Of a DNA stretch of 64,000 nucleotides, positions 1,884 through 63,872 are shown in pieces; within the stretch, counting starts at the first letter, position 1, and each line of letters begins with the position of its first letter. Source of the stretch: a virus; the UHGV virus genome UHGV-0247568. One strand, 5' to 3'. Both the position numbers and the translations under genes were made by a program. Under the pieces are notes generated by a model, which made no database searches, was not told the origin of the DNA, and saw only the letters and a program-made list of their open reading frames with translations.

Positions 1884-1940
1884 TCTAAAAATAAAAATCA
1901 AATTTTATTCAAAATAATTGCATTTTGTAAGCATAAAATG

Positions 1941-1969
1941 TTTACAAAATGCTTTTTCTAATGTATAAT
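1941..1969 (+). promoter_or_regulatory. class-A early promoter TTTACA-N17-TGTATAAT with conserved leader
   Basis: TTTACA 1941-1946, TATAAT 1964-1969 with TG at -15/-14. The -35 lies in the 3' arm of a perfect 11-bp hairpin gcattttgtaa/ttacaaaatgc (1919-1951). Confidence 0.7.
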
Positions 1970-2008
1970 AAATATATAATAAATAAACAAAAGAAAGAAG
2001 TGGATAAC

Positions 2009-2212
2009 ATGATCAAAACTACTAATAAACAATTTATGGAAAACTTAGAAACAAGTGTTGCTGAAGGAAATAATGTAAAAGTGCACTATGAAAACAAATA
2101 CAAAAATGCTGCAATGATTATCAATAGTGAGGTAAAAGAAGTTACAGATAATATTGAACTAGGTCAAATCAGACAATTCGAACAAGTTATTGATTTAGTA
2201 ATTGCTTACTAA
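2009..2212 (+). CDS. hypothetical protein (67 aa; the track start at 1949 lies inside the promoter, so the ATG at 2009 is preferred)
   Basis: ATG at 2009 preceded by aagaaagaagtgg RBS and downstream of the promoter +1. The 1949 start would begin inside the -10. Confidence 0.45.
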   Translation: MIKTTNKQFMENLETSVAEGNNVKVHYENKYKNAAMIINSEVKEVTDNIELGQIRQFEQVIDLVIAY

Positions 2213-2244
2213 AATAAAAAATTGTATTTTGTGAGCAAAAACTG

Positions 2245-2273
2245 TTTACAAAATACAATTTCTAATGTATAAT
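2245..2273 (+). promoter_or_regulatory. class-A early promoter TTTACA-N17-TGTATAAT
   Basis: TTTACA 2245-2250, TATAAT 2268-2273. The -35 is embedded in the 12-bp hairpin attgtattttgt/acaaaatacaat. Confidence 0.7.
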
Positions 2274-2318
2274 AAATATATAATAAATAAACAAATAAAA
2301 GAAAAGAGGAATTAAACA

Positions 2319-2507
2319 ATGACAACTAAAGAAAAATACGAAAACAAATTACAAAAATTAAACGAAAGATTTGATAAATTAAAAGCTGAAATGATTGAAG
2401 CATACGACAAAGGAGATAACGAAAAAGGACATAGACTAAACGATAGACTAGAAAACATGCTAGATGTGATTTTACTAACTGAAATGGTCTTAGATACATT
2501 TAAATAA
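2319..2507 (+). CDS. hypothetical protein (62 aa)
   Basis: RBS gaaaagaggaa, then ATG. Coiled-coil-like sequence. Confidence 0.45.
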   Translation: MTTKEKYENKLQKLNERFDKLKAEMIEAYDKGDNEKGHRLNDRLENMLDVILLTEMVLDTFK

Positions 2508-2580
2508 AATCAGAAAAGGGGTTGACAAGTTCAGCCCCAACTGATATGCTTAATTCATAAGTTAAGAGGAGGAAACAAAC

Positions 2581-2763
2581 ATGATAAACTTTGAAATCAC
2601 AGAAGATGATAACTACACACTAGACGAATTACTAGATAGTAAAGAATTTAAAAAACAAGTGAATAGTCTTAATCACGTCCCACAAATGCGGCCACAAAGT
2701 CACAATAGCAATACTTTAGCAGATACAGGACGCTATCCAGATTATAGTAAGTATGTAAGATAA
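2581..2763 (+). CDS. hypothetical protein (60 aa)
   Basis: Strong RBS aagaggagg 8 nt upstream. Preceded by TTGACA-N17-TATGCT inside a hairpin at 2515-2545. Confidence 0.4.
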   Translation: MINFEITEDDNYTLDELLDSKEFKKQVNSLNHVPQMRPQSHNSNTLADTGRYPDYSKYVR

Positions 2764-2788
2764 CAACAAACAAATTGGAGGAAGAATA

Positions 2789-2965
2789 GATGAAACTAAC
2801 AGAAGATTCAGAACAACATATTATCAATACAATAACAAGACTTAGACAAGCAAACCACGAACTAAATAAAGTGCAACATAAAGATAGTGATGTAATGGCA
2901 ATACAATTTGAAATAGCTAAAATAATGAACAAAATACGTGAAACATACTTGGAGGAAAATAAATG
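2789..2965 (+). CDS. small hypothetical protein (58 aa), not in the track
   Basis: RBS ttggaggaagaatag then ATG. The stop overlaps the next start as ATGA. Confidence 0.35.
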
Positions 2966-3355
2966 AAATACACAGAAAATGACTTAAAAGATGGTACAAA
3001 ATTACGTTGCACTGATACAGGCATCTATGATTGGTGGACAGAAGGACGTATTTATACAGTAGCAAATAAATGTATTCTTGATAATTACGGTGACAGTGCA
3101 GAAAGTGACTATATTTTAAACTGTCTTAATGGTCAAAATATAGTAAAATTTGAAATTTTTGAATACCCAACCGCAACAATCACAGTGGATGCTGAGCAAC
3201 GGCTAAATGATAAAATTGAAGCACTAGCGACTGAACGTGAAAATATTCTTGCTAAAATGGCTAGAATGGAAAAACAACAACTTAAATTGCGTAATAAAGT
3301 CCAGAAGTTACACAAAGCTAAAAAAGCACTAAAAACTTTGAGAGAATTTATGTAA
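2963..3355 (+). CDS. hypothetical protein with C-terminal coiled coil (130 aa)
   Basis: ORF whose start overlaps the upstream stop (translational coupling). Heptad-like K/E-rich C-terminus. Confidence 0.5.
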   Translation: MKYTENDLKDGTKLRCTDTGIYDWWTEGRIYTVANKCILDNYGDSAESDYILNCLNGQNIVKFEIFEYPTATITVDAEQRLNDKIEALATERENILAKMARMEKQQLKLRNKVQKLHKAKKALKTLREFM

Positions 3356-3384
3356 AACTTAATATAATTTAGGAGGAAATTAAA

Positions 3385-3591
3385 ATGACACTAGAACAAT
3401 TATTAGAATTAATGGAATATGGTAAAAGAGTAACTATTACAATTAATGGGGTATCTACAGCGTGGATGCATAACGAACGTTCTAAAATGATCACGAATTA
3501 TAAAGAAAATAAAGGGCGCAAAATTATTTCTTTCACACCTTCAGAAAATAGTATTAATATTGTTTTAGAAGGAGATAAAAATGAAAATTAA
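3385..3591 (+). CDS. hypothetical protein (68 aa)
   Basis: RBS taggaggaaattaaa then ATG. Confidence 0.45.
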   Translation: MTLEQLLELMEYGKRVTITINGVSTAWMHNERSKMITNYKENKGRKIISFTPSENSINIVLEGDKNEN

Positions 3592-3985
3592 TAAATATTA
3601 CTTACGTAGCGATAATCCAGCTGAATATATTGATGAATTACGCTCATTAAATAAGACAATGAAAGATGTGCAATTTGAAGATAACTTCAACTACCGCAAT
3701 CCTTATGTTTTAATTGAAGTTAAAGAAGACAAAAAGAAAAAGAAAAATAATAAAAAGTTTAAATATTTTATTATTCTTCCTGGTCTTCCCAATTCTAAAA
3801 AATATTTAATTAAAGATAAATCTTCAGGTAATATTGAATTCGGCTCTAAAAATGGTATTATGGAAAATTTAAATAAAGGGCAAATTCTTTTCACAATTGA
3901 TGAAATTAATTCAATCGATCCATTATATTTAAACTTTAGAAAAATTGCATTTAACATTAAAGGAGAAGAAATTGACTATGACTAA
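3581..3985 (+). CDS. hypothetical protein (134 aa)
   Basis: ORF overlapping the upstream stop. Lys-rich internal segment. Confidence 0.5.
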   Translation: MKINKYYLRSDNPAEYIDELRSLNKTMKDVQFEDNFNYRNPYVLIEVKEDKKKKKNNKKFKYFIILPGLPNSKKYLIKDKSSGNIEFGSKNGIMENLNKGQILFTIDEINSIDPLYLNFRKIAFNIKGEEIDYD

Positions 3986-4184
3986 AAAAGATAAGTTAGA
4001 AAACACTATAATGATGTGTATTGATTTAGACACAGGCCAATATTTTAAAAGAGAAAATACAGAAATTAAAACAGGCGTCGTTGAAGATCTTATTATTGAT
4101 TTAGAAAAAATGACTAGTCAGATGATTAATTTATGTAGACAATTATATGAAGAAAAGGAGCTAAAAAATGAAGGATTGGATTAA
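3945..4184 (+). CDS. hypothetical protein (alternative start ATG 3978 after RBS aaaggagaag)
   Basis: ORF in a coupled arrangement. The internal ATG at 3978 has the better RBS. Confidence 0.4.
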   Translation: MHLTLKEKKLTMTKKDKLENTIMMCIDLDTGQYFKRENTEIKTGVVEDLIIDLEKMTSQMINLCRQLYEEKELKNEGLD

Positions 4185-4404
4185 AGCTATATTTTTAGGA
4201 GTATTTCAAGTTATGTTATTTATAATTGTGCCAACAATATTCCTAGGATTAATGGCAGGTTTTATGTATTTATTCATTATTTATGCCCTTATTCCAATTA
4301 AAGAATATATGCCCACAATTCTATTATCCATTTTATCAATATCGGTCTTTATTATAGTTTTATTATCTATAGTCGATGCACACGATAGAATGAAAAATAA
4401 TTAA
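4168..4404 (+). CDS. small membrane protein (2 predicted TM helices, 78 aa)
   Basis: Two long hydrophobic stretches (IFLGVFQVMLFIIVPTIFLGLMAGFMYLFIIYALI and ILLSILSISVFIIVLLSIV). Confidence 0.45.
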   Translation: MKDWIKAIFLGVFQVMLFIIVPTIFLGLMAGFMYLFIIYALIPIKEYMPTILLSILSISVFIIVLLSIVDAHDRMKNN

Positions 4405-4418
4405 AAAAAAATAAACCA

Positions 4419-4456
4419 AAACGAGCATTTTGTTGTTTACAGATGCTCGTTTTTAA
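4419..4456 (+). terminator. intrinsic terminator aaacgagcat...atgctcgttt + T-run, whose loop contains the next promoter's -35
   Basis: 10-bp stem with a T-run after it. TTTACA 4436-4441 lies in the loop/3' arm. Confidence 0.55.
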
Positions 4457-4464
4457 TGTATAAT
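4436..4464 (+). promoter_or_regulatory. promoter TTTACA-N17-TGTATAAT overlapping the terminator hairpin
   Basis: TTTACA 4436-4441, TATAAT 4459-4464, TG present. Confidence 0.5.
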
Positions 4465-4532
4465 ATACCTATAGTTAATTAATAAATATTCTTCCACAAA
4501 GAAAAAACTTTTAAAAATAATTTAAAAAACTG

Positions 4533-4561
4533 TTTACAAAATACGAAAACTAATGTATAAT
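4533..4561 (+). promoter_or_regulatory. class-A early promoter with conserved leader (aaatatataataaataaacaaa...gaaaagaggaa)
   Basis: TTTACA 4533-4538, TATAAT 4556-4561. The leader is near-identical to those at 1970 and 2274. Confidence 0.7.
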
Positions 4562-4605
4562 AAATATATAATAAATAAACAAATTAAAGAAAAGAGGAAT
4601 TTACA

Positions 4606-4797
4606 ATGACAATCAATCAATTTTTACAAATCACAGAACGCGGAATTAAAGTAGTTATCAATTTTGAAAACGGTGAAACTGCTTCATTTAATTATTTTAG
4701 TTCATTTGAAAAAAATGATGTATACCAAGCAAACAAAGATAAAGAAATTACATTAGTTCAACCAGCTGCAGGAGCAATCTTTCTAACAGTTAAATAG
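4606..4797 (+). CDS. hypothetical protein (63 aa)
   Basis: ORF directly behind the class-A promoter/leader. RBS aaagaaaagaggaa. Confidence 0.45.
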   Translation: MTINQFLQITERGIKVVINFENGETASFNYFSSFEKNDVYQANKDKEITLVQPAAGAIFLTVK

Positions 4798-4831
4798 TTA
4801 AAAAAAAATAAAACGAAAAGAGGAAATTAAA

Positions 4832-5044
4832 ATGACAAAAACATTCACACTAAACACTTACACTAATATTATTGAAACAGATATGGAATCAATCAACCGT
4901 TTCTTTAACGGAGAAGATAAAAATGATACTAAGAAATATAAATTTAAAACTATGGAAGAAGCAGAAAAATTTCAAAATGAATTAAAAGAGCAAGGTATCA
5001 AAACCTGTATGACACAAAGCATTGATTGGGATCAATTCAAATAA
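4832..5044 (+). CDS. hypothetical protein (70 aa)
   Basis: RBS aaaagaggaaattaaa then ATG. Confidence 0.45.
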   Translation: MTKTFTLNTYTNIIETDMESINRFFNGEDKNDTKKYKFKTMEEAEKFQNELKEQGIKTCMTQSIDWDQFK

Positions 5045-5049
5045 AGTAG

Positions 5050-5078
5050 TTTACAAATCAGTATGGATATGATATAAT
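5050..5078 (+). promoter_or_regulatory. promoter TTTACA-N17-TATAAT whose -10 is bracketed by a perfect 13-bp inverted repeat (candidate operator)
   Basis: TTTACA 5050-5055, TATAAT 5073-5078. The inverted repeat tcagtatggatat (5058-5070) / atatccatactga (5079-5091) flanks gatataat. Confidence 0.55.
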
Positions 5079-5119
5079 ATATCCATACTGATAAATAAAT
5101 AAAAAGAGATGAGGAATTT

Positions 5120-5284
5120 ATGATGACAAAATTAATTTTAACTTTAGGAATTTTAGCTGGATGGTTTTTAGTAGTAACAAATATTACATTTGATATTCGA
5201 GTAATTGAAATATTCTTCGTTGGAATTTTAACAATATTTAGTGGAATTTTAGAAGCTGGCGTTTTAGTTGGAGGTAAAGAATAA
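5120..5284 (+). CDS. small membrane protein (54 aa, 2 TM), not in the track
   Basis: RBS agagatgaggaattt then ATGATG. Hydrophobic sequence. TAATG overlap with the next gene. Confidence 0.35.
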   Translation: MMTKLILTLGILAGWFLVVTNITFDIRVIEIFFVGILTIFSGILEAGVLVGGKE

Positions 5285-5841
5285 TGGAAAAAATTACATT
5301 TGAAAATTTTAACCCTCAACTAGATCGAATTGGAGATTGTGTATTACGGGCGATTACAGCATTTGAATACTATGAAATGTATAATCTGGGAGCTTGCGAT
5401 TTATCAACATACGATACTTATAATAGAATTAAAGACGAAATTGAAAGCCATGGCCCTTATGATCGGCAAATAAACTTTGAAAAATATTTAAGCAACCATG
5501 GGTACGTACGAATTAATGCATATAAATGGATTGATAATATTAGAGTAAGATCAGCAAATCAATTAGCTATTTTTTGTAAAAACTTTAATATTTCTGCTCT
5601 AGCTTTATCAAATACTCATATGGCTTATGTCGACCCAAAAAAGGGCGTTGTTGATACTTGGGACAGTAGAAGAAAACATTTAGAAGTATTTTATATTAAA
5701 GAAGAAGATGTTCATAAATTAGATTTAAAAATGAAAGAAGAAATTGATCGTCTTACAAATATTAAATATGTAGATACAAAAGAAAATGTGATTAAAACGA
5801 ATAAGGTAAATGATAAATCATATAAACAAATTAGAAAATAA
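5284..5841 (+). CDS. hypothetical protein (185 aa)
   Basis: ORF start-coupled to the upstream small ORF. Followed by a bidirectional terminator. Confidence 0.5.
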   Translation: MEKITFENFNPQLDRIGDCVLRAITAFEYYEMYNLGACDLSTYDTYNRIKDEIESHGPYDRQINFEKYLSNHGYVRINAYKWIDNIRVRSANQLAIFCKNFNISALALSNTHMAYVDPKKGVVDTWDSRRKHLEVFYIKEEDVHKLDLKMKEEIDRLTNIKYVDTKENVIKTNKVNDKSYKQIRK

Positions 5842-5849
5842 AAAAAAAA

Positions 5850-5883
5850 AAGGAAGGATAATCAATTAAGATTATCCTTCCTT
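5850..5883. terminator. bidirectional intrinsic terminator between convergent genes (A-run / aaggaaggataatc-aattaa-gattatccttcctt / T-run)
   Basis: 14-bp perfect stem flanked by A10 on one side and TTTTG on the other. It sits between the end of the plus-strand gene (5841) and the end of the minus-strand integrase (5887). Confidence 0.65.
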
Positions 5884-5886
5884 TTG

Positions 5887-20337: not shown

Positions 20338-20411
20338 GTTTTATTTCTCCTTTTTCGATTTTATTTAATATCTATATTATATATAAGTAAGTGAGCACTT
20401 TTTTATAAGAA

Positions 20412-33199: not shown

Positions 33200-34586
33200 T
33201 TTTTTATTAAATTTTTAATTTTTATATTATATAACGCCACACACTGGTTACCCCTAAGAAACGTTTTGGTACCTGGTGTGTGGCGAAAACTCAATAACGT
33301 ATTACCAGGAATTTCGCCTTTTTTCCTGAGGACAGTGCGGGCTATTTCGTCGACCGATGCGGATGGGTTGGTAGCCATTTCACACCCTCAGGACAAAAAT
33401 AATGAATGACTGAACACACTTTAATGCATTAATGATTGATGTGATGACACAGCACATACGTTGCACACATAAAGTTGAAGCAAGAAGTAAAAGTGTTTCA
33501 CTGTCAGTCACTCTCAAGCTGTCTATACTCACTATAGTAGATATATCCTACACACCCTCAAGACGTCCCTCAGACATACCTCAGACACTACCCCTGTCTA
33601 CTATAATCTATATAATACACTACTATGATATAATATAACAATAATATGTACTATTATGCTGTATATGTACACTATATAATGTACGTATAATGTACACCCT
33701 GAGTACACATATAATATATATTATATATTTTGTGGTGCATATATGCTGTTATTATGTAGCTGATATGCAATATATATAAATAATGTGTACACACTATGTA
33801 CATTATAGTGATGCAATATTATAGTGCAACAATATACTGACTTTATATATAATATATAATCTATATACGTGCTATATGGTATAATGGTATACTGTACCAT
33901 ATTTTACCTGATATATATGGCATGTTATATACGGCTATCTATATACGGGTATATACATGGGTATATAGGTACTCCATGGTGTATATGTGCCTATCCTTAT
34001 AGACGATATATGGTATATATAATAAAAGGATTATGACCAACTCCATGGAGTAGATAACAGATATTTATTGCATACATTTTTGCGAAGCAAAATGTATGCT
34101 CCTTACGTTTTGCGAAGCAAAAACGTAAGGATTGGTAACTGCTTACTATTCCTCTTAAATATACAAATTCCTCTTATTCTAATATAAAATATCAAATAGT
34201 CTAATATATAATAATATCTCCCTCTTTGATGTTTACACCTCCATGGTGTATAGTGTAAAATATCAAATATACTAATCTATATATATAGGATTCGGTGTTT
34301 TTGTGATTTTACAGTTTACAGTTGACAGTTAGTATGATATAATATAATTATCTTAAATATGAGGAGATGAGCTGAATTTGAATTAGTTAAAGGACGTTTT
34401 AAAGTTGGAGACAGATTTAGACACATTCGTTATGGAAACTTGAATGTATTAAAAATTATAGAAGTCAGAGAATATGAGAGACATTTGCCAAACTATAGAG
34501 TGATTAGTGAAAATAATGGCTATAAATATTTGATTAGTGAAGATGAGTTAGTGAAATATCCAATTATTAGAAATGAGGAATAAATT
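33200..34586. other. 1.4-kb ORF-poor region with three parts: a GC-rich structured element (33228-33400), an AT/TA-rich iteron block (33600-34030) and twin palindromes capped by GCGAAGC mini-hairpins (34071-34130). Candidate replication origin and/or packaging region
   Basis: No credible ORF. Long hairpins cgccacacac…gtgtgtggcg and tcctgagg…cctcagga. Repeats (g)ggtatata and tatacgg. Four CCATGG copies. Palindromes catacatttt-TGCGAAGCA-aaatgtatg and ccttacgtttt-GCGAAGC-aaaaacgtaagg. Confidence 0.45.
34315..34343 (+). promoter_or_regulatory. promoter TTTACA-N17-TGaTATAAT
   Basis: TTTACA 34315-34320, TATAAT 34338-34343. A second TTTACA lies 7 nt upstream. Confidence 0.5.
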
Positions 34587-39020: not shown

Positions 39021-39116
39021 GTTTTATAGTGCTATTTCTAATATTAGCATATAACGATAAAAAAGATTAAAAAATAGGAATTTTTTCCTATTTTTTTTAT
39101 TATTATTGAAAAACTG

Positions 39117-42035: not shown

Positions 42036-42064
42036 TTTACAAATTGGCATTTCTAATGTATAAT
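42036..42064 (+). promoter_or_regulatory. class-A promoter with conserved leader
   Basis: TTTACA 42036-42041, TGTATAAT ending 42064. Leader aaatatataataaataaacaaaagaaagtaggaa. Confidence 0.7.
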
Positions 42065-42098
42065 AAATATATAATAAATAAACAAAAGAAAGTAGGAA

Positions 42099-42320
42099 AT
42101 GACAATGGAAAACAAAAAACAAATGATGGAAAACAAAATCAATGAATTAAGAAAAGAAGCTGGTAAATTATATGAAGATTTAGACAAAGCTTTTGCAGCA
42201 AATAACATTGAATTATATGATGAAATTGGAGATGTTATGAGCGCTAAATATGAAGAATCTCGTAAATTAATCGTTGAATTTAATGCCACATTTGGTGAAC
42301 CACCACATTTAAACTGGTAA
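42099..42320 (+). CDS. hypothetical protein (73 aa)
   Basis: ORF behind the class-A cassette. Confidence 0.4.
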   Translation: MTMENKKQMMENKINELRKEAGKLYEDLDKAFAANNIELYDEIGDVMSAKYEESRKLIVEFNATFGEPPHLNW

Positions 42321-43267: not shown

Positions 43268-43296
43268 TTTACAAATATCCTCAAATTTGATATAAT
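43268..43296 (+). promoter_or_regulatory. class-B promoter directly preceded by the CCATGGAG motif (gtCCATGGAGTTTACA)
   Basis: TTTACA 43268-43273, TATAAT 43291-43296. Confidence 0.6.
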
Positions 43297-44695: not shown

Positions 44696-44722
44696 AAATT
44701 AAAAAATATTTGCTCCATGGAG

Positions 44723-44751
44723 TTTACAAAATTCCATGGAGTTGATATAAT
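44723..44751 (+). promoter_or_regulatory. class-B promoter flanked by two inverted CCATGGAG motifs (CTCCATGGagtttacaaaattCCATGGAG)
   Basis: TTTACA 44723-44728, TATAAT 44746-44751. The two motifs can pair as an 8-bp stem with the -35 in the loop. Confidence 0.6.
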
Positions 44752-47010: not shown

Positions 47011-47039
47011 GAGACGTTTACATAACGTCTCTTTTTTGA
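47011..47039 (+). terminator. intrinsic terminator gagacgtt-taca-taacgtctc + T6 that also carries the next -35 (TTTACA 47017-47022)
   Basis: 8-bp stem plus T-run. The overlapping promoter's TATAAT is at 47040-47045. Confidence 0.6.
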
Positions 47040-48118: not shown

Positions 48119-48120
48119 GA

Positions 48121-48153
48121 GTAGTTTACAAAACTACTCTTTTTTGATATAAT
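48121..48153 (+). promoter_or_regulatory. terminator hairpin (agagtagttt-acaaa-actactct + T6) fused to class-B promoter TTTACA-N17-TATAAT
   Basis: TTTACA 48125-48130 inside the stem, TATAAT 48148-48153. Confidence 0.6.
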
Positions 48154-49827: not shown

Positions 49828-49856
49828 TTTACAAAAATTAAAATAGTTGATATAAT
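49828..49856 (+). promoter_or_regulatory. class-B promoter
   Basis: TTTACA 49828-49833, TATAAT 49851-49856. Confidence 0.6.
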
Positions 49857-49926
49857 ATAAATATAAATAATGATTAATGAAAATCATTAAAAATAATATA
49901 AAAGAAAAGAAAGTAGGAATTTAATT

Positions 49927-50911: not shown

Positions 50912-50950
50912 TCGGTGCTCATGTCGATCTAGAGGAGATGAGTCTCCTCT
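50912..50950 (+). terminator. intrinsic terminator ctagaggagat-gagt-ctcctctag + T6
   Basis: Perfect 10-bp stem plus T-run. Confidence 0.65.
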
Positions 50951-50977
50951 AGAATTTTTTAAAAAGGAGAAATATGT

Positions 50978-51891: not shown

Positions 51892-51920
51892 TTTACAAAA
51901 TATACTTTAATTGATATAAT
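51892..51920 (+). promoter_or_regulatory. class-B promoter
   Basis: TTTACA 51892-51897, TATAAT 51915-51920. Leader …agaaagtaggaa. Confidence 0.6.
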
Positions 51921-51959: not shown

Positions 51960-53030
51960 ATGATTGATATTTTTAATGTGGAACCTGTAAAAGTGAGTGT
52001 TAACCCAGCGGATTATTCAACATTTATCTATGGTGTTCCAAAAATTGGTAAAACAACATTGGCGTATGATTTATACAAAGAACGTGGTTTATTTTTAGCA
52101 ACTGAAGATCGTCACAAAACTTTAGCTGGTGCTAATGTAATTCGAATTACTTCATGGGTTGATTATTTACAAGTTATGGGACAATTAAAACAACCAAAAG
52201 CGAAAGAATTATATGATGTTATCATTGTCGACACTGTTGAAAATTTATATAATATGCTAGAAAAATTTGTTGCAGCAAAATATAAAGAAAGTACAGTTGG
52301 AGAACGAAATGATTTATGGGGTAAAGACTGGACAGATTTGAAAAACATGTGGAAATCTGGTTTAAATATGATTGGTGAAGCGGGTTTCGTTCCATGTTTT
52401 ATCGCACATGCTACAGAACAAATGGTACAAATTCCAGCGTCTGGTGTTTTAAAATCAGATTTGGAAGGTGCACAAGTTGAATTAAAAACTGTAAAAGGTG
52501 AAGATGGAAATACTTTAGAAGTTTATGAATTCCAAAAATATATGCCAGATTTAAAAGATAAAGTTTTTGCTCCAATTAATCGAATGGTTGATAATATTTT
52601 ATTTGCAAATACAACATTAGATGTTACAACTGGTGAAGAACAACGCGTACTTTATTTACGTGATACATTACAATGGATGGCTGGTTCAACATTTAAAAAT
52701 ATTGTACCAATTGTAAAATTAAGTGCTGACAGTTATATGAAAGCAGTCGAAGCAGCTTTAGGAACAGTAGATAAAAAAGATACTAAAAAATCTGAAGAAC
52801 GTAAAGTTAAACAAGAATTAGATTTTAATTCAATTCGAGCAGAAGTGATGAAATATGGTGCAGCATTTAATGAAGCTAAAAAACTAGAAGTATTAAACAA
52901 AATTAGTGCAGATATTTTCGGTATCGGAAATAAAATTACAGATGCTGATGAAAGTCAGGTTGAATTATTAGCAGCAGCACTTGAGGAAATCAAGAAAAAA
53001 GCAAAACAATTAAATATTACAATTAAATAA
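51960..53030 (+). CDS. RecA-fold P-loop ATPase (AAA_24 / Sak4-like phage recombination protein family)
   Basis: Walker A GVPKIGKTT near the N-terminus, Walker B-like IIVDTVE. A long C-terminal extension. Confidence 0.45.
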   Translation: MIDIFNVEPVKVSVNPADYSTFIYGVPKIGKTTLAYDLYKERGLFLATEDRHKTLAGANVIRITSWVDYLQVMGQLKQPKAKELYDVIIVDTVENLYNMLEKFVAAKYKESTVGERNDLWGKDWTDLKNMWKSGLNMIGEAGFVPCFIAHATEQMVQIPASGVLKSDLEGAQVELKTVKGEDGNTLEVYEFQKYMPDLKDKVFAPINRMVDNILFANTTLDVTTGEEQRVLYLRDTLQWMAGSTFKNIVPIVKLSADSYMKAVEAALGTVDKKDTKKSEERKVKQELDFNSIRAEVMKYGAAFNEAKKLEVLNKISADIFGIGNKITDADESQVELLAAALEEIKKKAKQLNITIK

Positions 53031-53063: not shown

Positions 53064-53092
53064 TTTACAAATTAAAAAGAATTTGATATAAT
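53064..53092 (+). promoter_or_regulatory. class-B promoter
   Basis: TTTACA 53064-53069, TATAAT 53087-53092. Confidence 0.6.
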
Positions 53093-53140: not shown

Positions 53141-53803
53141 ATGTTAAGTTTTAATCGAGATGTAGATATTTTATTAGTAAAGGAAATGGCTTTAAAATAT
53201 TTAAAAGAGTGCAAAGACTCAACTGAAGAAGCGCGAGTTGTTAAAATTATCCAGGAGGCAAATGGTCAATTAAGGCCATTCGTGCATTTGCATATTGTTG
53301 AAAATATTCAGCTGGCTGAACTTAAGCGCCGCGAATTACTTGAAAAATTAGAAACTTGTGATTATCGGAAGATTGTATCAAACCTAAAAGCAAGTAGGAC
53401 AATTATTCACCACCCCAATTTTGAATACCAAGGCTGTGTACATGAAAATAATTGGCGAACAATTGAAGAAAAATTTGTTTCAATTGACCAAATGCTCGAT
53501 GGTTTAGTTGCTGATAAAGTAACAATTGAATTAGAAACATTTAACGGAACAAGCCCACATGGTATCGAACGCTTGCAAAAAGCCTTAGCTTTAAAAGCTG
53601 AATTGGATGTTCGCATCGATCATAAAAAATGTGATGAGTCAAGTCCTGAGCCCGTAAAAGCTGCTGACTTAAAAATGACTGTTAAGGTTGATGGTGAAAC
53701 ATTAATCAAACAAATGTTAAAAATCAACGAAGCTTGGGGCAAAAATTTACAACAACAATTGGAAGATATCCAGGAAGCACATTATCGAGGGGAAGGTAAA
53801 TAA
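53141..53803 (+). CDS. hypothetical protein (220 aa)
   Basis: ORF, RBS aaagaggaaattatt. Confidence 0.45.
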   Translation: MLSFNRDVDILLVKEMALKYLKECKDSTEEARVVKIIQEANGQLRPFVHLHIVENIQLAELKRRELLEKLETCDYRKIVSNLKASRTIIHHPNFEYQGCVHENNWRTIEEKFVSIDQMLDGLVADKVTIELETFNGTSPHGIERLQKALALKAELDVRIDHKKCDESSPEPVKAADLKMTVKVDGETLIKQMLKINEAWGKNLQQQLEDIQEAHYRGEGK

Positions 53804-53804
53804 T

Positions 53805-54059
53805 ATGGGACCAATTGCAGGTGCGTTTTTAACAATTTGTGTATATTTAGGGTTTATTGTATTTTTCTTTTTTGCGTCATATTTATTTGCGGCAATGATT
53901 GCCTCAATGTTTTTCGAATATGATTATAAAATAAATGTACATTTATATATCTGTTTATCTTTTATTGCAATCGCGATTTGTTTAACAATGATTGCATATG
54001 TTTTAGGAGGAGTCGATTGGTTAATTGACTTACGAAATATTGGAGTTGAGAATCTATGA
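53805..54059 (+). CDS. small membrane protein (84 aa, 2 TM)
   Basis: Hydrophobic. Confidence 0.4.
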   Translation: MGPIAGAFLTICVYLGFIVFFFFASYLFAAMIASMFFEYDYKINVHLYICLSFIAIAICLTMIAYVLGGVDWLIDLRNIGVENL

Positions 54060-54265
54060 AAGATTTTTTAATTAGTTTGTTTTTTGTAATTTTACTTTTA
54101 GGATATAGGGTTTTTGTTATGTGGATCGTTGCTGCTGTTTTTGCTTATGGATTCTCATTGGTGTTTGGAGTTTATCTTAATGTTCAAGGACTATTCTTGA
54201 TCATTTTATCATTATATGTTTTGTTAAATACTTTATTAGGAAAAGTAAAAAAGTATGTTGATTAA
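54056..54265 (+). CDS. small membrane protein (69 aa, 2 TM)
   Basis: Hydrophobic, start-coupled. Confidence 0.4.
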   Translation: MKDFLISLFFVILLLGYRVFVMWIVAAVFAYGFSLVFGVYLNVQGLFLIILSLYVLLNTLLGKVKKYVD

Positions 54266-54995
54266 TGATTATAATTTAAAAAAGTTTAAAGAGAATTTTA
54301 ATAACAAAAAGCGCACTAATGCTACGCCACAAGAAAAATTCAAAACAATTAAGAAAGAATTGATTGAATGGTGTCAGTTCGATTCCAATGAGAATTTAAG
54401 AGTTTTCAGAGATTTAAGTTTCTATATCGAGGGTTATTCTTTAGTAATGGAATTCAGAGAAACTACAAACACACAAATGAAAATTCGATTCACATGGAAT
54501 TTGTCTGAAATTACGCCGTTAGAAGTACAAAACTATGTCACCCATTTTTGTAAAGAAATTCTCAATGTGAAAGAGCCCCGATTGACAATTACAGAACAAT
54601 TCATGTATGAAAATTTAGGACTTTATTATCCTGAAGATGAAAATTTAGTTATCTCACTCCACTTAATTTATCAATTAAAAAGGGAGATAGTTTTAGCTAT
54701 TTTACGCCATGAATTAATTCACCATTATTGTTCAGTTAATGGATTAGGAGCTAGAGACGTAGACAATGACTTTATTTCATTAATTATCAAATATGATGCA
54801 TATGTCTCAATGGCTCCTAATGCGCAATATGCATATAAGAAATTCGTGGCGAATCTCGTGAAAAATGGCTCTGGTTTTGCCTCAGAGGAATTCTCTGAAG
54901 ACCGTATGGAAGTTTTGTATAAAAAATGGTTATTAAAAACCAGGATTGACGAGGACACATATGGCACAACACCACATTTATACAGCTTATTTTAA
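54255..54995 (+). CDS. SprT-like zinc metalloprotease domain protein
   Basis: HExxH motif in LAILRHELIHHYCSVNG. Confidence 0.35.
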   Translation: MLINDYNLKKFKENFNNKKRTNATPQEKFKTIKKELIEWCQFDSNENLRVFRDLSFYIEGYSLVMEFRETTNTQMKIRFTWNLSEITPLEVQNYVTHFCKEILNVKEPRLTITEQFMYENLGLYYPEDENLVISLHLIYQLKREIVLAILRHELIHHYCSVNGLGARDVDNDFISLIIKYDAYVSMAPNAQYAYKKFVANLVKNGSGFASEEFSEDRMEVLYKKWLLKTRIDEDTYGTTPHLYSLF

Positions 54996-55034
54996 TGTTT
55001 AAAATATGAATTTTATTTAATAGGAGGACACCTT

Positions 55035-55262
55035 ATGTTAGAAAAAGCAAGAGAATTATTAGATGAATTAAATGGAAATATGTATTATCCAGCTTTCGAA
55101 GAACTAAAAGATTTAGCTGATAAAGACATGGGAGAAACTTTCGCACTTACCTGGTCATTAGCTTATGATAGTCACGACTGCGATGTTTACACTATATCTT
55201 TAGCTTATATCGGTGAAGATGGTAAAATAGAATTAGAAACGGCAGTTAGTTATTCAGTATAG
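55035..55262 (+). CDS. hypothetical protein (75 aa)
   Basis: RBS aataggagga. Confidence 0.4.
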   Translation: MLEKARELLDELNGNMYYPAFEELKDLADKDMGETFALTWSLAYDSHDCDVYTISLAYIGEDGKIELETAVSYSV

Positions 55263-55273
55263 GAGGAATTTAT

Positions 55274-55516
55274 ATGAAACATGAAACATTTATGATTCGT
55301 GCAATTGATAAAGTAGCAAAAATGATTGGTTGTAGTGAGGATGACGTTTTTGTTGTTTGGTCTGCTAAGACATTGAAAAATAGTAAAGCAATTATGTCCG
55401 CTAAAGTAAAGGGTGCGCCACTAATTGAGGTGACTATGGATGGAACAAATGGCGTAATTTACTTTGATGTTTATAAAAAGATTGAGCAACAAAAAGTGTT
55501 TTTCGTTCCTAAATAG
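55274..55516 (+). CDS. hypothetical protein (80 aa)
   Basis: RBS taggaggaattt. Confidence 0.4.
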   Translation: MKHETFMIRAIDKVAKMIGCSEDDVFVVWSAKTLKNSKAIMSAKVKGAPLIEVTMDGTNGVIYFDVYKKIEQQKVFFVPK

Positions 55517-55528
55517 GAGATAATAAAT

Positions 55529-55756
55529 ATGAAATATAATGGAAAAGAACAATATTATAGTAATAATATGTTTATTGTATTAATTGTTCTACTTTTCATT
55601 TTTCTTGGAGTAAATATTTTCTTTGGTTCAAGAATGATGTATTATAGAGACGAATATAATAATCAAAAAAATTATAATGATATGAGAGAAAGAGTTTGGA
55701 ACGAAAAAAATCATGAGAAGAATGATATTGAAAATGTTCCAAAAAGTGCAGTTTAA
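55529..55756 (+). CDS. small membrane protein (75 aa)
   Basis: RBS taggagata. One TM helix. Confidence 0.4.
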   Translation: MKYNGKEQYYSNNMFIVLIVLLFIFLGVNIFFGSRMMYYRDEYNNQKNYNDMRERVWNEKNHEKNDIENVPKSAV

Positions 55757-56077: not shown

Positions 56078-56452
56078 ATGGAATTTATTGGTGGAGAAGA
56101 AGTAACACAAGAGCAGCTTGAAGTATTTTTTAATAAACACAATATTGGAGAACCGGGTGATAGAGCGATTTATTGGAGAGCAAAATCACAAATTAAAGAT
56201 TTTGATGAACGAATTGCTGATTATTTATATCAAATTAGTTTTTTAGAAAAGAAATATAGTGAAATGAAACAACGAAAAATTGAACAAGAAAATGATGATA
56301 AAATGGCTAAAATGAATTGTGAAGATGAGTGTAAACGATTAAATAAACAAATTTATGCTTATAAAAAATTAGTATATGTCACTTCTATGCTTAAAGACAC
56401 TTATAAAAAAGATTTAGACATTAGTTTACATTTAGACGATATAGTGATATAA
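56078..56452 (+). CDS. hypothetical protein (124 aa)
   Basis: RBS aaggaggaaatt. Confidence 0.45.
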   Translation: MEFIGGEEVTQEQLEVFFNKHNIGEPGDRAIYWRAKSQIKDFDERIADYLYQISFLEKKYSEMKQRKIEQENDDKMAKMNCEDECKRLNKQIYAYKKLVYVTSMLKDTYKKDLDISLHLDDIVI

Positions 56453-56453
56453 T
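56425..56453 (+). promoter_or_regulatory. class-B promoter inside the 3' end of the preceding CDS
   Basis: TTTACA 56425-56430, TATAAT 56448-56453. Confidence 0.45.
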
Positions 56454-58578: not shown

Positions 58579-59184
58579 GTGAAATTGAAACAAAATAAAT
58601 TTTACGTATATGAGCACTGGTATAATGGTCAATGTTTTTATGTAGGAAGTGGTAAATATAGAAGAGCATATGATTGGCGAAGAGAAGGAAGAAGAAGCAA
58701 GGAATGGTATGATTTTTGTAAAAAAGATTATGATAATTTAGTGGTTAAAATAATTGGTGAATTTGACACAAGCGCTGAAGCCATTGAATTTGAAAAAGCT
58801 TTAACTATTTACAATGATTATATTTTAAAAATGCCACTTGTTAATTTGGGAACTGGAAATTCTTTTTATGGAAAAGCAAATTCAATGTATGGAAAAAATG
58901 TAAAAAACTATATGGATTATGATAAATGGTTATTAAAAAATAAAAAACAAGGAGAAAAAATTTCTGGAGAAAAACACCCAAAAGCTAAAAAGATCATTGC
59001 AACAAATATTATATCAGGCGAAAAAATATGCTTTAACACTAAGAAAAATTGTGCCGAATATTTTAAAGGACAATTTTCATGGCTAAGTATAGAAAAACAT
59101 GTTCGTGGTGAAAAAGTGATAAAAATAGATAATAGTGAATGGAGATTCAGTGAAATGGCAGGTGAAAAACACTGTGAATGCTAA
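58579..59184 (+). CDS. GIY-YIG homing endonuclease (Seg/I-TevI-like) inserted between the helicase and primase genes
   Basis: KFYVYEHWYNGQCFYVGSGKYRRAYDW GIY-YIG core. NUMOD3-like repeats NSFYGKANSMYGK and GEKHPKAKK. Confidence 0.75.
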   Translation: MKLKQNKFYVYEHWYNGQCFYVGSGKYRRAYDWRREGRRSKEWYDFCKKDYDNLVVKIIGEFDTSAEAIEFEKALTIYNDYILKMPLVNLGTGNSFYGKANSMYGKNVKNYMDYDKWLLKNKKQGEKISGEKHPKAKKIIATNIISGEKICFNTKKNCAEYFKGQFSWLSIEKHVRGEKVIKIDNSEWRFSEMAGEKHCEC

Positions 59185-60224
59185 AAAAGTTGTTGAAATG
59201 TTAAATGACCGAGACGTATTTGATTTGTTAGAAGAATTAGAAGCGCAACCAATTGATAGAGGAAATACAATCGATGCATTAACGGTGTGTCATCGGTGGA
59301 CATAAACATAAACTGACTTATTACAAAGAAAGTAAATCATTTCAATGTTGGACAAATTGCGGCCATATGTCGATATTCGATATGGTCGCAAAAGTTATTG
59401 ATGGTGAATTTATAGATGCTTTAAAATTTATAGTAAAAAAATATAATTTACAAGATAATAATTATCAAGTTGGTTTTACATTTGAAAAAGTAGAAGATCC
59501 GGGTAAAAAATTATTAGAAAAAATGAAAGGAGTAGAAATGCCAACTTTCATAAAGTTAAACTCGGATATTTTAAAAGACTTTTATCCATTTTATCACCAA
59601 CTTTGGATAAATGATGGAATTTCTATAGAATCAATGAAAAAATATAGAATTAAATATTCCATTGAGAATAATCAAATAATTATTCCGCACTTTGATAAAA
59701 ATGGAAATTTAATTGGAGTTCGTGCTCGTAATTTAAACAAAAAAGAAGTGGATGAAGGTAAAAAATATATGCCAATATTCCATGGTGGTAAAGTTTTAAA
59801 ACATATGACTGGAGCAAATTTATACGGTCTTTATGAAAACAGAGAAAATATTGAAAAAGATAAAAAATTAATATTGTTTGAATCAGAAAAAAGTGTTTTA
59901 CAATTAAACAGTATGTTACCAGATCATTCAATTGGTGTATGTGTTTCAGGCTCTTCATTAACACAATATCAACTTGAATTAATCAAGGAACTTAATATAG
60001 ATGAAGTAATTATTGGTGTTGATAAAGAATTCAGTGAAGTTGGAACAGAAAAAGAGAAAATATATGCTGAAAAAATATTAAGAGTTTTTAAGAGAAAATT
60101 AGCACCATATGTAAGAGTGTCAGTTTTATGGGATTTGGAAAACGACATTGAGGAAAAAGATAGTCCCACTGATAAAGGAAAAGAAATATTTTTAAAATTA
60201 TTTAAAAATAGAATATATATTTAG
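59174..60224 (+). CDS. DnaG-like DNA primase (CHC2 zinc-binding domain plus TOPRIM). As sequenced it is broken by a frameshift at the (GT)3 tract 59285-59290
   Basis: N-terminal part in frame 2 (GTG 59174 after RBS aggtga: VNAKKVVEMLNDRDVFDLLEELEAQPIDRGNTIDALTVCHRWT*). Continuation in frame 3 from 59283 (C-VIGG-HKHKLTYYKESKSFQ-C-WTN-C-GH, zinc-finger spacing like DnaG). TOPRIM motifs ILFESEKS and VIIGVDKEF downstream. Adding one GT unit or deleting 1 nt restores a single ORF. Confidence 0.6.
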
Positions 60225-62061: not shown

Positions 62062-62082
62062 TAAAAAATGTGGAGAATGTTG

Positions 62083-62110
62083 TTTACATTCTCCATTTTT
62101 ATGATATAAT
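62083..62110 (+). promoter_or_regulatory. class-B promoter (N16) inside terminator hairpin tggagaatgt…acattctcca
   Basis: TTTACA 62083-62088, TATAAT 62105-62110. T-run after the stem. Confidence 0.55.
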
Positions 62111-62148
62111 ATAAATATAAATAAAAAAAAAGAAAGTAGGAAATTATT

Positions 62149-62751
62149 ATGGCAAAAGTAAAATATTCAAAATACGATGTGTATGACTTTTTGGATTCTA
62201 AGAAAGCAGAAATTTTAGAGAAAAAATTGGCTCCACTGTACAAAATTAGAGATGAAATTAAGTATGAAGGAATTAAAACTAAATATTCAAAAATTAATAT
62301 TGAAAAATTAAATGAAAAAATTAGCGAATTAAATGGAATGTTGTCCGATATTGATTTTGAATATTCAGCATATTCTTCAAAATTATATGGCTTATATGTA
62401 ACAACAGGCAATATGAAGGATAAAATTCTCAAAAAAGGATTAGAGAAAGCAGTTGCAGATGATGTATCATGCACAGTACTATTACATGAACTTCCAGATT
62501 ATAACCAAGCAGAAGATAATATTCACCAAACTAGAGGTGAAATTGTAGAAGAATTTCAAAAATTAGATAGAATGGTTAAAAGCTGTAAAGATGGAGCTCA
62601 AGCTGTTTTACAATTAAATAAATTAGGCTTCGACACTTCAACAATTAAACCTTCAAGTGGAAGTAATGAACTATTAGTTTTAAATATTAATAATGATTTA
62701 TTGGGCTTACCAGAAGAAAGCTCCGACGTTGCAGAAAACTCAGAGTTCTAA
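62149..62751 (+). CDS. hypothetical protein (200 aa)
   Basis: ORF behind the class-B leader (agaaagtaggaaattatt). Confidence 0.45.
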   Translation: MAKVKYSKYDVYDFLDSKKAEILEKKLAPLYKIRDEIKYEGIKTKYSKINIEKLNEKISELNGMLSDIDFEYSAYSSKLYGLYVTTGNMKDKILKKGLEKAVADDVSCTVLLHELPDYNQAEDNIHQTRGEIVEEFQKLDRMVKSCKDGAQAVLQLNKLGFDTSTIKPSSGSNELLVLNINNDLLGLPEESSDVAENSEF

Positions 62752-62765
62752 TGGAGGTATCTTAA

Positions 62766-63149
62766 ATGGATAATAATAAAATTGAAGATAGTAAAGTGGA
62801 GAAAATAATTGATTTAATTGAATCGTTATTAATTGTTAGTGAAATTAATGAAGAAACAGAAGTGTGGATTGAAACACTAACTCCTTCGCATGGGCAGTGC
62901 CACTTACCAGTTACTGGTCTCTCCATGGACGGCGAAAATGATCTCTTTTTACTATTAGATATTGATAAAGACCATGGTGTTAAAGTTCCACAATTACTTG
63001 AATATTTACAAAAATATACTGATGAGAATGAAGTAGAAGAATTATGGTATTGGAGTGGAATTAACGAACCTTTTACAGTTGATTCATATTATATTATGGA
63101 AGATAACACTTTAGTTTTTAGTGATTATAATGGTGAACGCGATGAATAG
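62766..63149 (+). CDS. hypothetical acidic protein (127 aa)
   Basis: RBS aatggaggtat. Confidence 0.45.
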   Translation: MDNNKIEDSKVEKIIDLIESLLIVSEINEETEVWIETLTPSHGQCHLPVTGLSMDGENDLFLLLDIDKDHGVKVPQLLEYLQKYTDENEVEELWYWSGINEPFTVDSYYIMEDNTLVFSDYNGERDE

Positions 63150-63612
63150 AAGAATTGAAGGTCCATTAAAACATATTATTGATGATAAAAATAGGTATCT
63201 TGCACGAGATGTAAATTTTGTTCCAAAATTAAAAGATGAATTAACTAAGACATTTAGGTTGCTTTGTGATGGTGATGATAATGTTAGATTAGTTTATGAT
63301 ACTCATTTTAAACAATCATATATTTTTCATGCTCGAAAAGATGGGAATTTAATTTTTCCAATATTAGGTTTTTCTTTACAACCAAAGGAAGACGAAGTGT
63401 TCCAAACTGTTTTTGCCCCATATAAAATAAAAGATAATTATAATATATATATCGTTGTCCATATTTTTGGAGAAGAAATATATAATCTATCCATTAATCA
63501 AATATCAGTTTACTGTAATGAGAAAAATGAAGAAATACCACAAGAAATTACATTCTTAAATGGTAAAACAAGAAAATTTAATCAATATCATAGACTATTA
63601 GATTTATTTTAA
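63121..63612 (+). CDS. hypothetical protein (163 aa)
   Basis: ORF overlapping the upstream stop. Confidence 0.45.
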   Translation: MIIMVNAMNRRIEGPLKHIIDDKNRYLARDVNFVPKLKDELTKTFRLLCDGDDNVRLVYDTHFKQSYIFHARKDGNLIFPILGFSLQPKEDEVFQTVFAPYKIKDNYNIYIVVHIFGEEIYNLSINQISVYCNEKNEEIPQEITFLNGKTRKFNQYHRLLDLF

Positions 63613-63708
63613 AAAAATGAGATTTTGTGCAATTTTTTATGTACAAAGTCTCATTTTTTATGTATAATAAATATATAATAAATAAACAAATAGAAAAGAG
63701 GTAAGAAA

Positions 63709-63837
63709 ATGCTGAACGAGCAACAACCTTTAACTATAGAAGAAGAAATTGAATTACAAATTCAATCCGTTGAATTGATAATGGAAATTGAAGAAATAAT
63801 TGATAAAAATGGAAAAATTTATGGAAAAACTTTATAA
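63709..63837 (+). CDS. very small ORF (42 aa) behind a class-A-like cassette (TGTACA variant -35)
   Basis: Conserved leader and RBS aaaagaggtaagaaa. Speculative. Confidence 0.25.
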   Translation: MLNEQQPLTIEEEIELQIQSVELIMEIEEIIDKNGKIYGKTL

Positions 63838-63843
63838 AAACTG

Positions 63844-63872
63844 TTTACAAAATAGAAAAGTTAATGTATAAT
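63844..63872 (+). promoter_or_regulatory. class-A promoter with conserved leader
   Basis: TTTACA 63844-63849, TATAAT 63867-63872. Leader …cagaaagtaggaaataaca. Confidence 0.7.

Follow-up and report, generated by a model that had tools for sequence, protein, structure and literature searches.

The stretch of DNA analysed here, all 64,000 nucleotides of UHGV virus genome UHGV-0247568 supplied to us (the window), carries 25 predicted promoters among its early genes, and at 12 of them the -35 element is shared with a hairpin that begins just past the preceding gene. By megablast the window belongs with VPE25, VFW, vipetofem and vB_EfKM29 (KM29), a group of 86-kb Enterococcus siphophages to which it is 92-97% identical, and taxonomically it is placed in Andrewesvirinae, Vipetofemvirus; judged by its sequence, the source phage is VPE25-like and virulent. 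GC skew and the map of open reading frames (ORFs) divide the window into two + strand blocks (1-5841 and about 32150-64000), which hold early, replication and nucleotide-metabolism genes, and a - strand block between them (5887-32046) with structural, packaging and lysis genes. RNA-seq of VPE25 groups the replication and nucleotide genes as early, accumulating by 10 min, and the structural genes as late (PMC7064774); promoters, terminators and transcription units are described neither in that study nor in the paper on the genome (PMC4999554).

Exact matches to TTTACA-N15-19-TATAAT number 21 in the window against 0.60 expected, a count that none of 100 shuffles reached, and 20 of the 21 lie on the + strand. 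A position weight matrix built from the exact-match sites finds 24 sites on the + strand and none on the - strand, all inside the + coding blocks, with -10 elements starting at 1097, 1964, 2268, 4459, 4556, 5073, 32153, 34338, 36228, 39140, 42059, 42361, 43291, 44746, 47040, 48148, 49851, 51915, 53087, 55809, 56448, 62105, 63663 and 63867 (each promoter is named below by P and this position). The 25th promoter, at 2522-2550, is of another type, TTGACA-17-TGATATGCT, with a TATGCT -10. A preliminary description of this DNA had counted at least 23 copies of a promoter cassette, which agrees with these numbers. At the 24 matrix sites 10-11 of the 12 core positions match the sigma-70/sigma-A consensus, the spacer measures 17 nt in 23 of 24 and the -35 reads TTTACA in 20 of 24, with a conserved G before the -35 and conserved bases after the -10: by their sequence elements, these are promoters of the sigma-70/sigma-A type. 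The two flavours named in the preliminary description are both present. Class A, TGTATAAT plus AAATATATAATAAATAAACAAA, has TG directly before TATAAT and AAATATATAATAAATAAACAAA after it, and its -10 elements lie at 1964, 2268, 4556, 42059, 63663 and 63867 (+), with a variant at 55809; class B, TGATATAATATAaataTAaa, carries TGnTATAAT.

The hairpins that enclose or contain the -35 at 12 of the 25 promoters have folding energies of about -10 to -25 kcal/mol and start 3-37 nt past the upstream stop codon, and in 8 of the 12 at least four T follow directly after the stem, within the promoter spacer. All ten hairpins listed in the preliminary description fold as it stated (about -12 to -25 kcal/mol), and two more are found at 44712-44742 and 2518-2538; its proposal that a terminator overlaps the -35 is supported, as far as the hairpin goes, at these 12 promoters, and falls short in the T-run at four of them. 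Compared with shuffled sequences, 10 of the 11 hairpins at matrix promoters have z-scores of -3.3 to -7.4; the remaining one, at P47040, has a z-score of only -1.6, but was found by an independent terminator scan, which picked 47011-47031, 48117-48141, 62070-62096 and 1920-1952. Three of the four strongest + strand matches of that scan in 44-64 kb are junctions of this kind.

Because a laxer test, at least six pairs spanning the -35, passed 16 of 24 promoters, we adopted an energy threshold of -8 kcal/mol or better across the -35, with random positions and chimeras as controls. Eleven of the 24 native promoters reach this threshold, compared with 13% of chimeras whose 5' and 3' halves come from different promoters, and none of 10,000 permutations reached 11. 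Since the native hairpins far exceed the chimeras, the complementarity belongs to the individual junction and is not owed to the consensus that the promoters share. When the window is taken together with four related genomes, such a hairpin is present at 46-62% of promoters and at 14-18% of random positions. Across these relatives the stems of different copies have unrelated sequences (63 of the 70 hairpins being distinct), and the 3' end of the hairpin falls 1-13 nt before the -10 in 69 of 70 cases. A run of at least four T occupies the spacer in 47 of 70 promoters with a hairpin and in 12 of 64 without one (Fisher P 1.5e-8, orthologues not being independent), so the T-run accompanies the hairpin rather than being common to the promoters at large.

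Comparison with close relatives shows that the pairing is retained while the letters change. The stem at P55809 changes from GGGTAT/ATACCC to GGGCAT/ATGCCC in KM29 (U-A to C-G), with a U.G intermediate in phage 140; that at P4459 changes from ACGAGC/GCTCGT to ATGAGC/GCTCAT in nattely and 140 (C-G to U-A); in the family of P1964 and P2268, GCAT/ATGC is replaced by GCAC/GTGC or GTAC/GTAC; and the P47040 stem has G.U variants in 140 and nattely. Over an alignment of seven sequences, a small sample, 98.3% of cells are paired and five cells have changed on both sides; none of 500 shuffles reaches the observed score, and slid controls collapse. These changes point to selection on RNA pairing rather than on sequence. 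Because G.U pairs are valid only in + sense RNA, they argue for an RNA structure in transcripts arriving from upstream, that is, a terminator; and since stems differ between copies and are kept by compensatory and G.U changes, they are most likely intrinsic terminators in + RNA.

The search of related genomes proposed in the preliminary description did find the same design further afield, in Denvervirus 9183 and Planchet and in Efquatrovirus LM99. Most of the DNA of 9183 and Planchet is less than 80% identical to the window or unalignable with it; the layout and the genes are the same, and the stems are unrelated. Before the sigma-like gene, 9183 reads GGCAGTAAG-tttaca-CTTACTGTC-TTTTTT-GA-TATAAT, where the window reads GAGACG-tttacataa-CGTCTC-TTTTTT-GA-TATAAT, and the depositors of the 9183 record annotated terminators at junction sites. 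LM99, an unrelated 40-kb phage, has TTGAC-type promoters with the -35 inside a hairpin and sometimes a T-run in the spacer.

The 25 promoters are shared by about 72 + strand genes, and only about one gene in three is directly preceded by one, which is at odds with the earlier statement that nearly every early gene has its own; the resulting units hold 1-7 genes. That the cassettes drive individual small genes is correct for class A, whose first genes encode proteins of 42-71 aa, and incorrect for class B, which heads operons of up to about seven genes, including those for a RecD-like helicase, DNA ligase, SSB, Sak4 and DnaB-primase-RecJ. Searches of Pfam and PHROGs with the class A first genes gave no Pfam match, and two of the genes match only PHROG families of unknown function. 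The long conserved leader that had been described is in fact short: between the last base of the -10 and the start codon lie 26-70 nt (median 40), corresponding to a 5' untranslated region of about 33 nt. Its conserved 3' portion, AGAAAGTAGGAA or AGAAAAGAGGAA, is an extended Shine-Dalgarno sequence rich in purines, presumably complementary to the 3' end of Firmicute 16S rRNA. Predicted energies of the Shine-Dalgarno duplex are similar for first genes (-9.0 kcal/mol) and internal genes (-9.5 kcal/mol); a GGAGG core occurs 19 times on the + strand and is used by many internal genes and by none of the 23 first genes. By eye, the leader looks too A-rich to fold. An Rfam scan of the whole window at gathering thresholds returned only a tRNA (29505-29576), and the window therefore contains no known leader or riboswitch family.

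The promoters of the left-hand block, all on the + strand like those that follow, begin with P1097 (1074..1102; TTTACT-17-TGATATAAT), which has no hairpin and heads gene 1158-1883, a PHROG transglycosylase match. At the class A junction of P1964 (1920..1969) the hairpin at 1920-1952, the one picked by the terminator scan, holds the -35 (1941-1946) in its 3' arm (z -5.5) and is followed by T5 in the spacer and the -10 at 1964-1969; the promoter heads a single ORFan of 67 aa (2009-2212). The next class A junction, P2268 (2220..2273), has a 19-pair hairpin with the -35 (2245-2250) again in the 3' arm (z -6.0), a weak T-run and a -10 at 2268-2273, and heads gene 2319-2507. A four-gene module at 2306-3358, which shares 80-90% identity with DNA of some 100 Enterococcus phages of the 40-kb Efquatrovirus type (LM99 and AUEF3 among them), starts inside the P2268 leader and brings its own LM99-type promoter and hairpin (2518-2550). 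In this element, present also in LM99, the TTGACA at 2522 is separated by 17 nt from TGATATGCT and lies within the hairpin GGGGTTGA/TCAGCCCC (2518-2538; -15.5 kcal/mol, z -3.9), which has no T-run.

Further along the same block, the junction of P4459 (4420..4464) consists of the hairpin ACGAGCAT/ATGCTCGT, with the -35 (4436-4441) in its loop and 3' arm (z -4.7), T5 and the -10 at 4459-4464; no gene intervenes before the next promoter, 97 nt downstream. The sequence ATACCTATAGTTAATTAATAAATA after the P4459 -10 recurs after P1097, where the downstream sequence reads ATACCTATAAT.AATTAAT, and at several promoters of phage 140; promoters of this type may form a third class, or may make a short non-coding transcript. 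P4556 (class A, 4533..4561) stands in tandem behind P4459, has no hairpin and heads 4606-4797 and 4832-5044. The last promoter of the block, P5073 (class B, 5050..5092), heads 5120-5284 and 5284-5841; here a 15-pair inverted repeat (5057-5092; -19.9 kcal/mol, z -5.9) lies across the -10 (5073-5078), and no T-run follows it. Analogous repeats cover the -10 at three promoters of phage 140, all different in sequence (L015, reverse strand, 37784, 45291 and 47045).

The long right-hand block opens with P32153 (32130..32158; TTTACT-17-TGATATAAT), which lies in the divergent region and has the weakest matrix score, followed by P34338 (class B, 34315..34343), which has no hairpin. At the junction of P36228 (36193..36233), which heads the RecD-like helicase operon, the hairpin AGGAGGAAAGT/ACTTTCTTCCT (z -3.3) takes up the -35 (TTTACT, 36205) in its loop and 3' arm and is followed by T5 and then TGATATAAT. 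P39140 (class B, 39117-39145), at the head of an operon of about seven genes that includes DNA ligase, has a separate terminator upstream (39069-39096, with T8), adjacent to the promoter and not overlapping it. P42059 (class A, 42036..42064) is without a hairpin and heads a single ORFan of 71 aa (42105-42320). The neighbouring junction, P42361 (42331..42366), carries the -35 (42338) in the 5' arm of the hairpin CCAACGGTTTAC/GTAAATCGTTGG (z -4.8), which ends at the -10 (42361) and has no T-run. Only a degenerate hairpin is seen at P43291 (class B, 43268..43296), and at the junction of P44746 (44712..44751) the hairpin CTCCATGGAG.../...CCATGGAG covers the -35 (44723), again with no T-run before the -10 at 44746; this hairpin (44712-44742) has -19.9 kcal/mol and a z-score of -6.6 (-4.7 in the promoter-wide shuffle test).

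Two junctions flank the gene for a phage sigma factor (47087-48118; phrog_5767, E 6e-45), which forms a unit by itself behind P47040 (47011..47045; stem GAGACG/CGTCTC, -35 in the loop, T6 in the spacer, TGATATAAT) and is followed by P48148 (48117..48153; stem AAGAGTAG/CTACTCTT, -35 in the loop, T-run, TGATATAAT; z -4.0). The SSB gene is served by P49851 (class B, 49828..49856), with a longer leader of 70 nt; this leader contains a hairpin at 49868-49889 (AATGATT/AATCATT), which may be a translational operator, and 9183 and Planchet have a hairpin of altered sequence in the same place. Right after the SSB gene, and directly before the ribosome-binding site of gene 50978, lies a strong terminator (50928-50953; 11 pairs, T6) that no promoter follows and that the 9183 record annotates at the same place; it probably attenuates transcription inside the unit. 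P51915 (class B, 51892..51920) heads a single Sak4-like gene (51960-53030), and P53087 (class B, 53064..53092), with a weak hairpin just upstream that is better formed in KM29 and 140, heads a seven-gene unit. In the published VPE25 z-scores the corresponding genes, orf_30-36 (53141-55756 in the window), peak at 40 min, later than both neighbouring units, despite a class B promoter like those of the neighbours.

The class A variant at P55809 (55760..55814) is a junction with the hairpin ATGGGTATTTTGTAAA/TTTACAAATACCCAT, the -35 in the 3' arm and T5 (z -4.0). P56448 (class B, 56425..56453), which heads the DnaB/primase/RecJ operon, lies inside the 3' end of gene 56078-56452 and has no terminator. 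At the junction of P62105 (62070..62110) the stem GTGGAGAATG/CATTCTCCAT (z -3.9) includes the -35 in its loop and 3' arm, and a T-run and TGATATAAT follow, the spacer being 16 nt. The class A junction of P63663 (63612..63668) has a 20-pair hairpin (z -7.4) with T6 and the -10 at 63663, and heads an ORFan of 42 aa (63709-63837); its -35 is off-consensus (TGTACA), and the 5' arm has the matching base change. The last promoter in the window, P63867 (class A, 63844..63872), has no hairpin.

Outside the early promoters, four further features were noted. The tRNA gene at 29505-29576 (-; Rfam RF00005, 57 bits) sits in a gap upstream of the large terminase gene. Where the convergent + and - blocks meet, a 16-pair hairpin at 5848-5885 is followed by a T-run on the - strand and is probably a terminator for both directions, the terminator scan having reported the - strand only. 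The sequence CTTATATATAATATA occurs exactly twice, at 20373-20387 (-) and 32078-32092 (-), both upstream of late operons, and five times with up to two mismatches (1.07 expected); neither exact copy has a -35-like element beside it, and the sequence is a candidate for a late promoter recognised by the sigma-like protein of gene 47087-48118. Finally, the window has about 578 bp (58582-59159) that KM29, 140 and nattely lack and that sit precisely in the space separating the dnaB stop from the primase gene; the ORF there (58579-59184, 201 aa) matches nothing in Pfam or PHROGs and may be a free-standing mobile gene, and primase homology (PHROG DNA primase) begins in ORF 59367-60224.

The sequences show motifs biased in strand and position, hairpin structures, covariation and breakpoints of homology; initiation and termination at these sites, and the sigma factor used, we infer, and we consider it very likely that the early promoters are read by host sigma-A polymerase and that about half of the junctions fuse the upstream terminator to the promoter. 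Host polymerase would start at near-consensus promoters in which an A-rich region lies upstream of GTTTACA, the spacer measures 17 nt, the -10 is extended and the start region is AT-rich; each promoter would head a unit of 1-7 genes through a short, A-rich and probably unstructured 5' untranslated region, and each unit would end at an intrinsic terminator. At about half of the junctions the DNA of the stem-loop would supply the -35, in its loop or 3' arm, and that of the U-tract the spacer, upstream RNAs ending some 10-17 nt ahead of the next start. By analogy with the promoter-coupled terminators discussed below, this fusion would save intergenic space and insulate the units, the T-tract aiding the promoter and the bound polymerase aiding termination. 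Class A copies with their small ORFans would also behave as portable cassettes, like the promoter early stem-loop (PeSL) elements of T4-type phages. In favour of host polymerase, the phage sigma-like gene is itself inside one of these units, and no such promoter is present on the late (-) strand. The earlier idea of insulated cassettes gains from the stem-specific complementarity, the covariation, the T-runs and the cross-genus design; what would be insulated is a unit of 1-7 genes, not each gene.

Several observations weigh against this reading. Four of the 12 hairpins are without a proper T-run (weak at 2268, none at 2518, 42331 and 44712) and may only attenuate or pause transcription, and several class A stems are AT-rich. 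Thirteen of the 25 promoters, one of them with the separate upstream terminator, have no overlapping hairpin, so that read-through from upstream is likely there. In the VPE25 expression data (PMC7064774, Table S2A), which are row-scaled z-scores from two noisy replicates, the correlation of adjacent genes is slightly but not significantly higher within predicted units (mean r 0.38) than across their boundaries (0.18; one-sided P 0.065); these z-scores neither confirm nor refute insulation. Finally, the nearly invariant block that follows the class A -10 (see below) is not explained by host-polymerase promoters fused to terminators.

We also regard it as quite possible, without favouring it, that the cassettes are mainly PeSL-type recombination modules, in which a conserved 60-100 bp of promoter and leader would provide homology patches for the insertion, deletion and duplication of small genes and their exchange between phages, the transcriptional role being a secondary consequence, as has precedent in T4-type phages. 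Homology to 140, nattely and vipetofem breaks at the ends of class A leaders (2294/2325, 4616, 4569 and 41998/42028), and a further breakpoint, 62184, lies within 80 nt of the class B promoter P62105. Six of the 12 internal breakpoints relative to 140 fall between -65 and +80 nt of a -10, in zones that make up about 9% of the early DNA; five of the six are at class A promoters or the adjacent P42361 and one is at P62105, a small sample with an intergenic bias. In 140 and nattely a class A promoter together with gene 42105-42320 also occupies the P4556 site, in 140 the homologue of gene 4606-4797 stands elsewhere, behind a different promoter, the module shared with Efquatrovirus starts at 2306 inside a class A leader, and the class A genes are ORFans of 42-71 aa. 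Against this, the right-hand breakpoints 3379 and 5476 fall outside cassettes, the core replication genes flanked by class B promoters keep their synteny, and intergenic breakpoints are expected anyway because disrupted genes are selected against. Exchange at cassettes is, moreover, compatible with terminator-promoter fusions read by host polymerase and would add to that explanation.

The feature that the favoured explanation leaves aside is confined to class A. From the -10 onward these promoters read (TATAATAAATA)x2 plus AACAAA, an exact 11-nt tandem repeat of TATAATAAATA by which a perfect TATAAT recurs exactly 11 nt downstream of the first, covering about -1 to +5 of the predicted start; the block, which also includes AAATAAACAAA, occupies 1970-1991, 2274-2295, 4562-4583, 42065-42086, 63669-63690 and 63873-63894 after the respective -10 elements. 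Among 34 distinct class A copies from six genomes and two genera the spacer varies freely, and the 28 nt from the -10 are nearly invariant: 26 of the 34 are exactly TATAATAAATATATAATAAATAAACAAA, and the others differ at few positions. The exact class A 27-mer was found in IMG/VR only in vipetofem and nattely, that is, in the VPE25-type group, and a looser tandem -10 pattern adds 86-90 kb contigs (at least one identical to 9183 at the promoter) and a few unrelated low-GC contigs, whose matches could be due to chance, so that we claim no wider family. Possible roles for such a block include an optimised start region, a sigma-dependent pause site and an operator that shuts off an ORFan regulon. 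Sigma-dependent pause elements of the lambda PR' type have a -10-like sequence in the first transcribed bases, which the second TATAAT near the class A start resembles; this likeness is a lead only. That the block is a dedicated control element, either a sigma-A-dependent pause at which a phage factor is loaded for read-through or a shut-off operator for immediate-early ORFans, seems to us rather unlikely. If it were true, class A promoters and ORFans would be portable cassettes, and PeSL-like gene shuffling would be general in Gram-positive siphoviruses too.

Inverted repeats that overlap core promoter elements, around the -35 and, at 5057-5092, around the -10, could instead act in DNA, as operators for regulators or as cruciform switches. 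The P5073 repeat and the four -35 hairpins without a T-run would suit such a role, and part of the preprint on promoter-coupled terminators reports that some terminator palindromes also bind transcription factors (bioRxiv 10.64898/2026.08.19.745784). We find this very unlikely: the stems are unrelated (63 distinct among 70) and offer no common operator, T-runs co-occur with the hairpins, and pairing is kept through compensatory and G.U changes, a G.U pair being a C.A mismatch on the other strand and meaningless for a site in duplex DNA. It is also highly improbable that the promoters are read by a phage-specified factor, whether the sigma-like protein that the phage encodes or a modified host sigma. 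The uniform departure from G to T (TTTACA, not TTGACA, in 20 of 24), the conserved G before it and the conserved bases after the -10 would fit a factor of this kind, but 11 of 12 core positions agree with the sigma-A consensus, the -10 is of the TG extended type, one of these promoters precedes the sigma-like gene itself, expression of the genes is seen by 10 min, and the motifs are absent from the late (-) genes, on which a phage sigma would be expected to act. Scarcely credible, lastly, is that the hairpins are functionless by-products of AT-rich sequence, the A-rich upstream region and TTTACAAA, for although the class A stem part TTTGTAAA/TTTACAAA does use conserved promoter bases and 13-17% of random or chimeric controls reach -8 kcal/mol, the excess over chimeras, z-scores of -3 to -7, compensation in orthologues, the association with T-runs and conservation across genera all speak against it.

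VPE25 and its relatives serve as working models for the biology of Enterococcus phages and for phage therapy, and the map of about 25 predicted early promoters, 12 fused junctions and unit boundaries can guide engineering, the insertion of reporters and the reanalysis of RNA-seq data. The junctions also represent compact natural terminator-plus-promoter parts for low-GC Firmicutes. Their recurrence suggests a general way in which small genomes accommodate closely packed, strong and insulated units. The feature is real, well above chance and conserved, and no new kind of mechanism is involved.

Two published systems come closest to this arrangement. The PeSL cassettes of T4-type phages combine a repeated AT-rich region, a consensus early promoter, a terminator or attenuator stem-loop in any of five positions (among them over the -35, over the -10, between the two and upstream) and a Shine-Dalgarno sequence; they flank ORFans in hyperplastic regions and serve as recombination points (PMC2839356, PMC4122927). 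The same composite anatomy is found here, the stem covering the -35 in 12 copies and the -10 at P5073 and lying upstream at P39140. Evolutionary behaviour agrees in part, in that some indel or replacement junctions fall in cassettes (2294/2325, 4569, 4616, 41998/42028 and 62184, a small sample biased towards intergenic sites). The association with ORFans is limited here to class A, whose surroundings vary between relatives, whereas class B heads core replication genes; PeSL stems are of the poly-G/poly-C kind and those of the window are of another, and the tandem TATAATAAATA block of class A has no described PeSL counterpart. PeSL are known from T4-type myoviruses, and the phage studied here is an 86-kb siphovirus of a Gram-positive host, unrelated to T4. 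Since a Vipetofemvirus is a siphovirus and not a T4-like myovirus, we regard its cassettes as analogues of PeSL, not as PeSL in the strict sense.

Promoter-coupled terminators have been mapped using Cappable-seq together with Term-seq in the chromosomes of A. baumannii, E. coli and B. subtilis, where the DNA of the T-tract and stem adds to promoter activity and polymerase at the coupled promoter raises termination efficiency, an effect lost with an insert of at least 35 bp; the preprint makes no mention of phages (bioRxiv 10.64898/2026.08.19.745784). Their anatomy is reproduced here, with same-strand tandem genes, a -35 in the stem-loop and a T-tract just upstream of the -10. The mapped gap has a mode of 8-11 bp, compared with a predicted gap of about 13-17 bp in the window, both well below 35 bp, and the density is far higher here, at about 12 junctions in 38 kb. 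The hairpin promoters of N4, read by its virion RNA polymerase, were ruled out as a model, the stems here not being conserved and a canonical -35 and -10 being present.

Early promoters of phage T5 carry a conserved AT-rich transcribed region, and those of T4 may have a -35 that reads GTTTAC. The early "uber" promoters of T4 comprise UP, -35, TGn and -10 elements, as described in part of PMC2988021. Like these, the promoters of the window are many near-consensus copies of the host type, with extra conserved positions upstream and at the first transcribed bases, and like them would capture host polymerase right after infection; T4 and T5 differ in belonging to coliphage families. The preliminary description, in calling the arrangement no ordinary operon organisation, overstated its novelty: the fusion of terminator and promoter is an already published design (PMC2839356, PMC4122927, bioRxiv 10.64898/2026.08.19.745784), and what the window adds is an apparent counterpart of PeSL and promoter-coupled terminators in Gram-positive siphoviruses of at least three genera.

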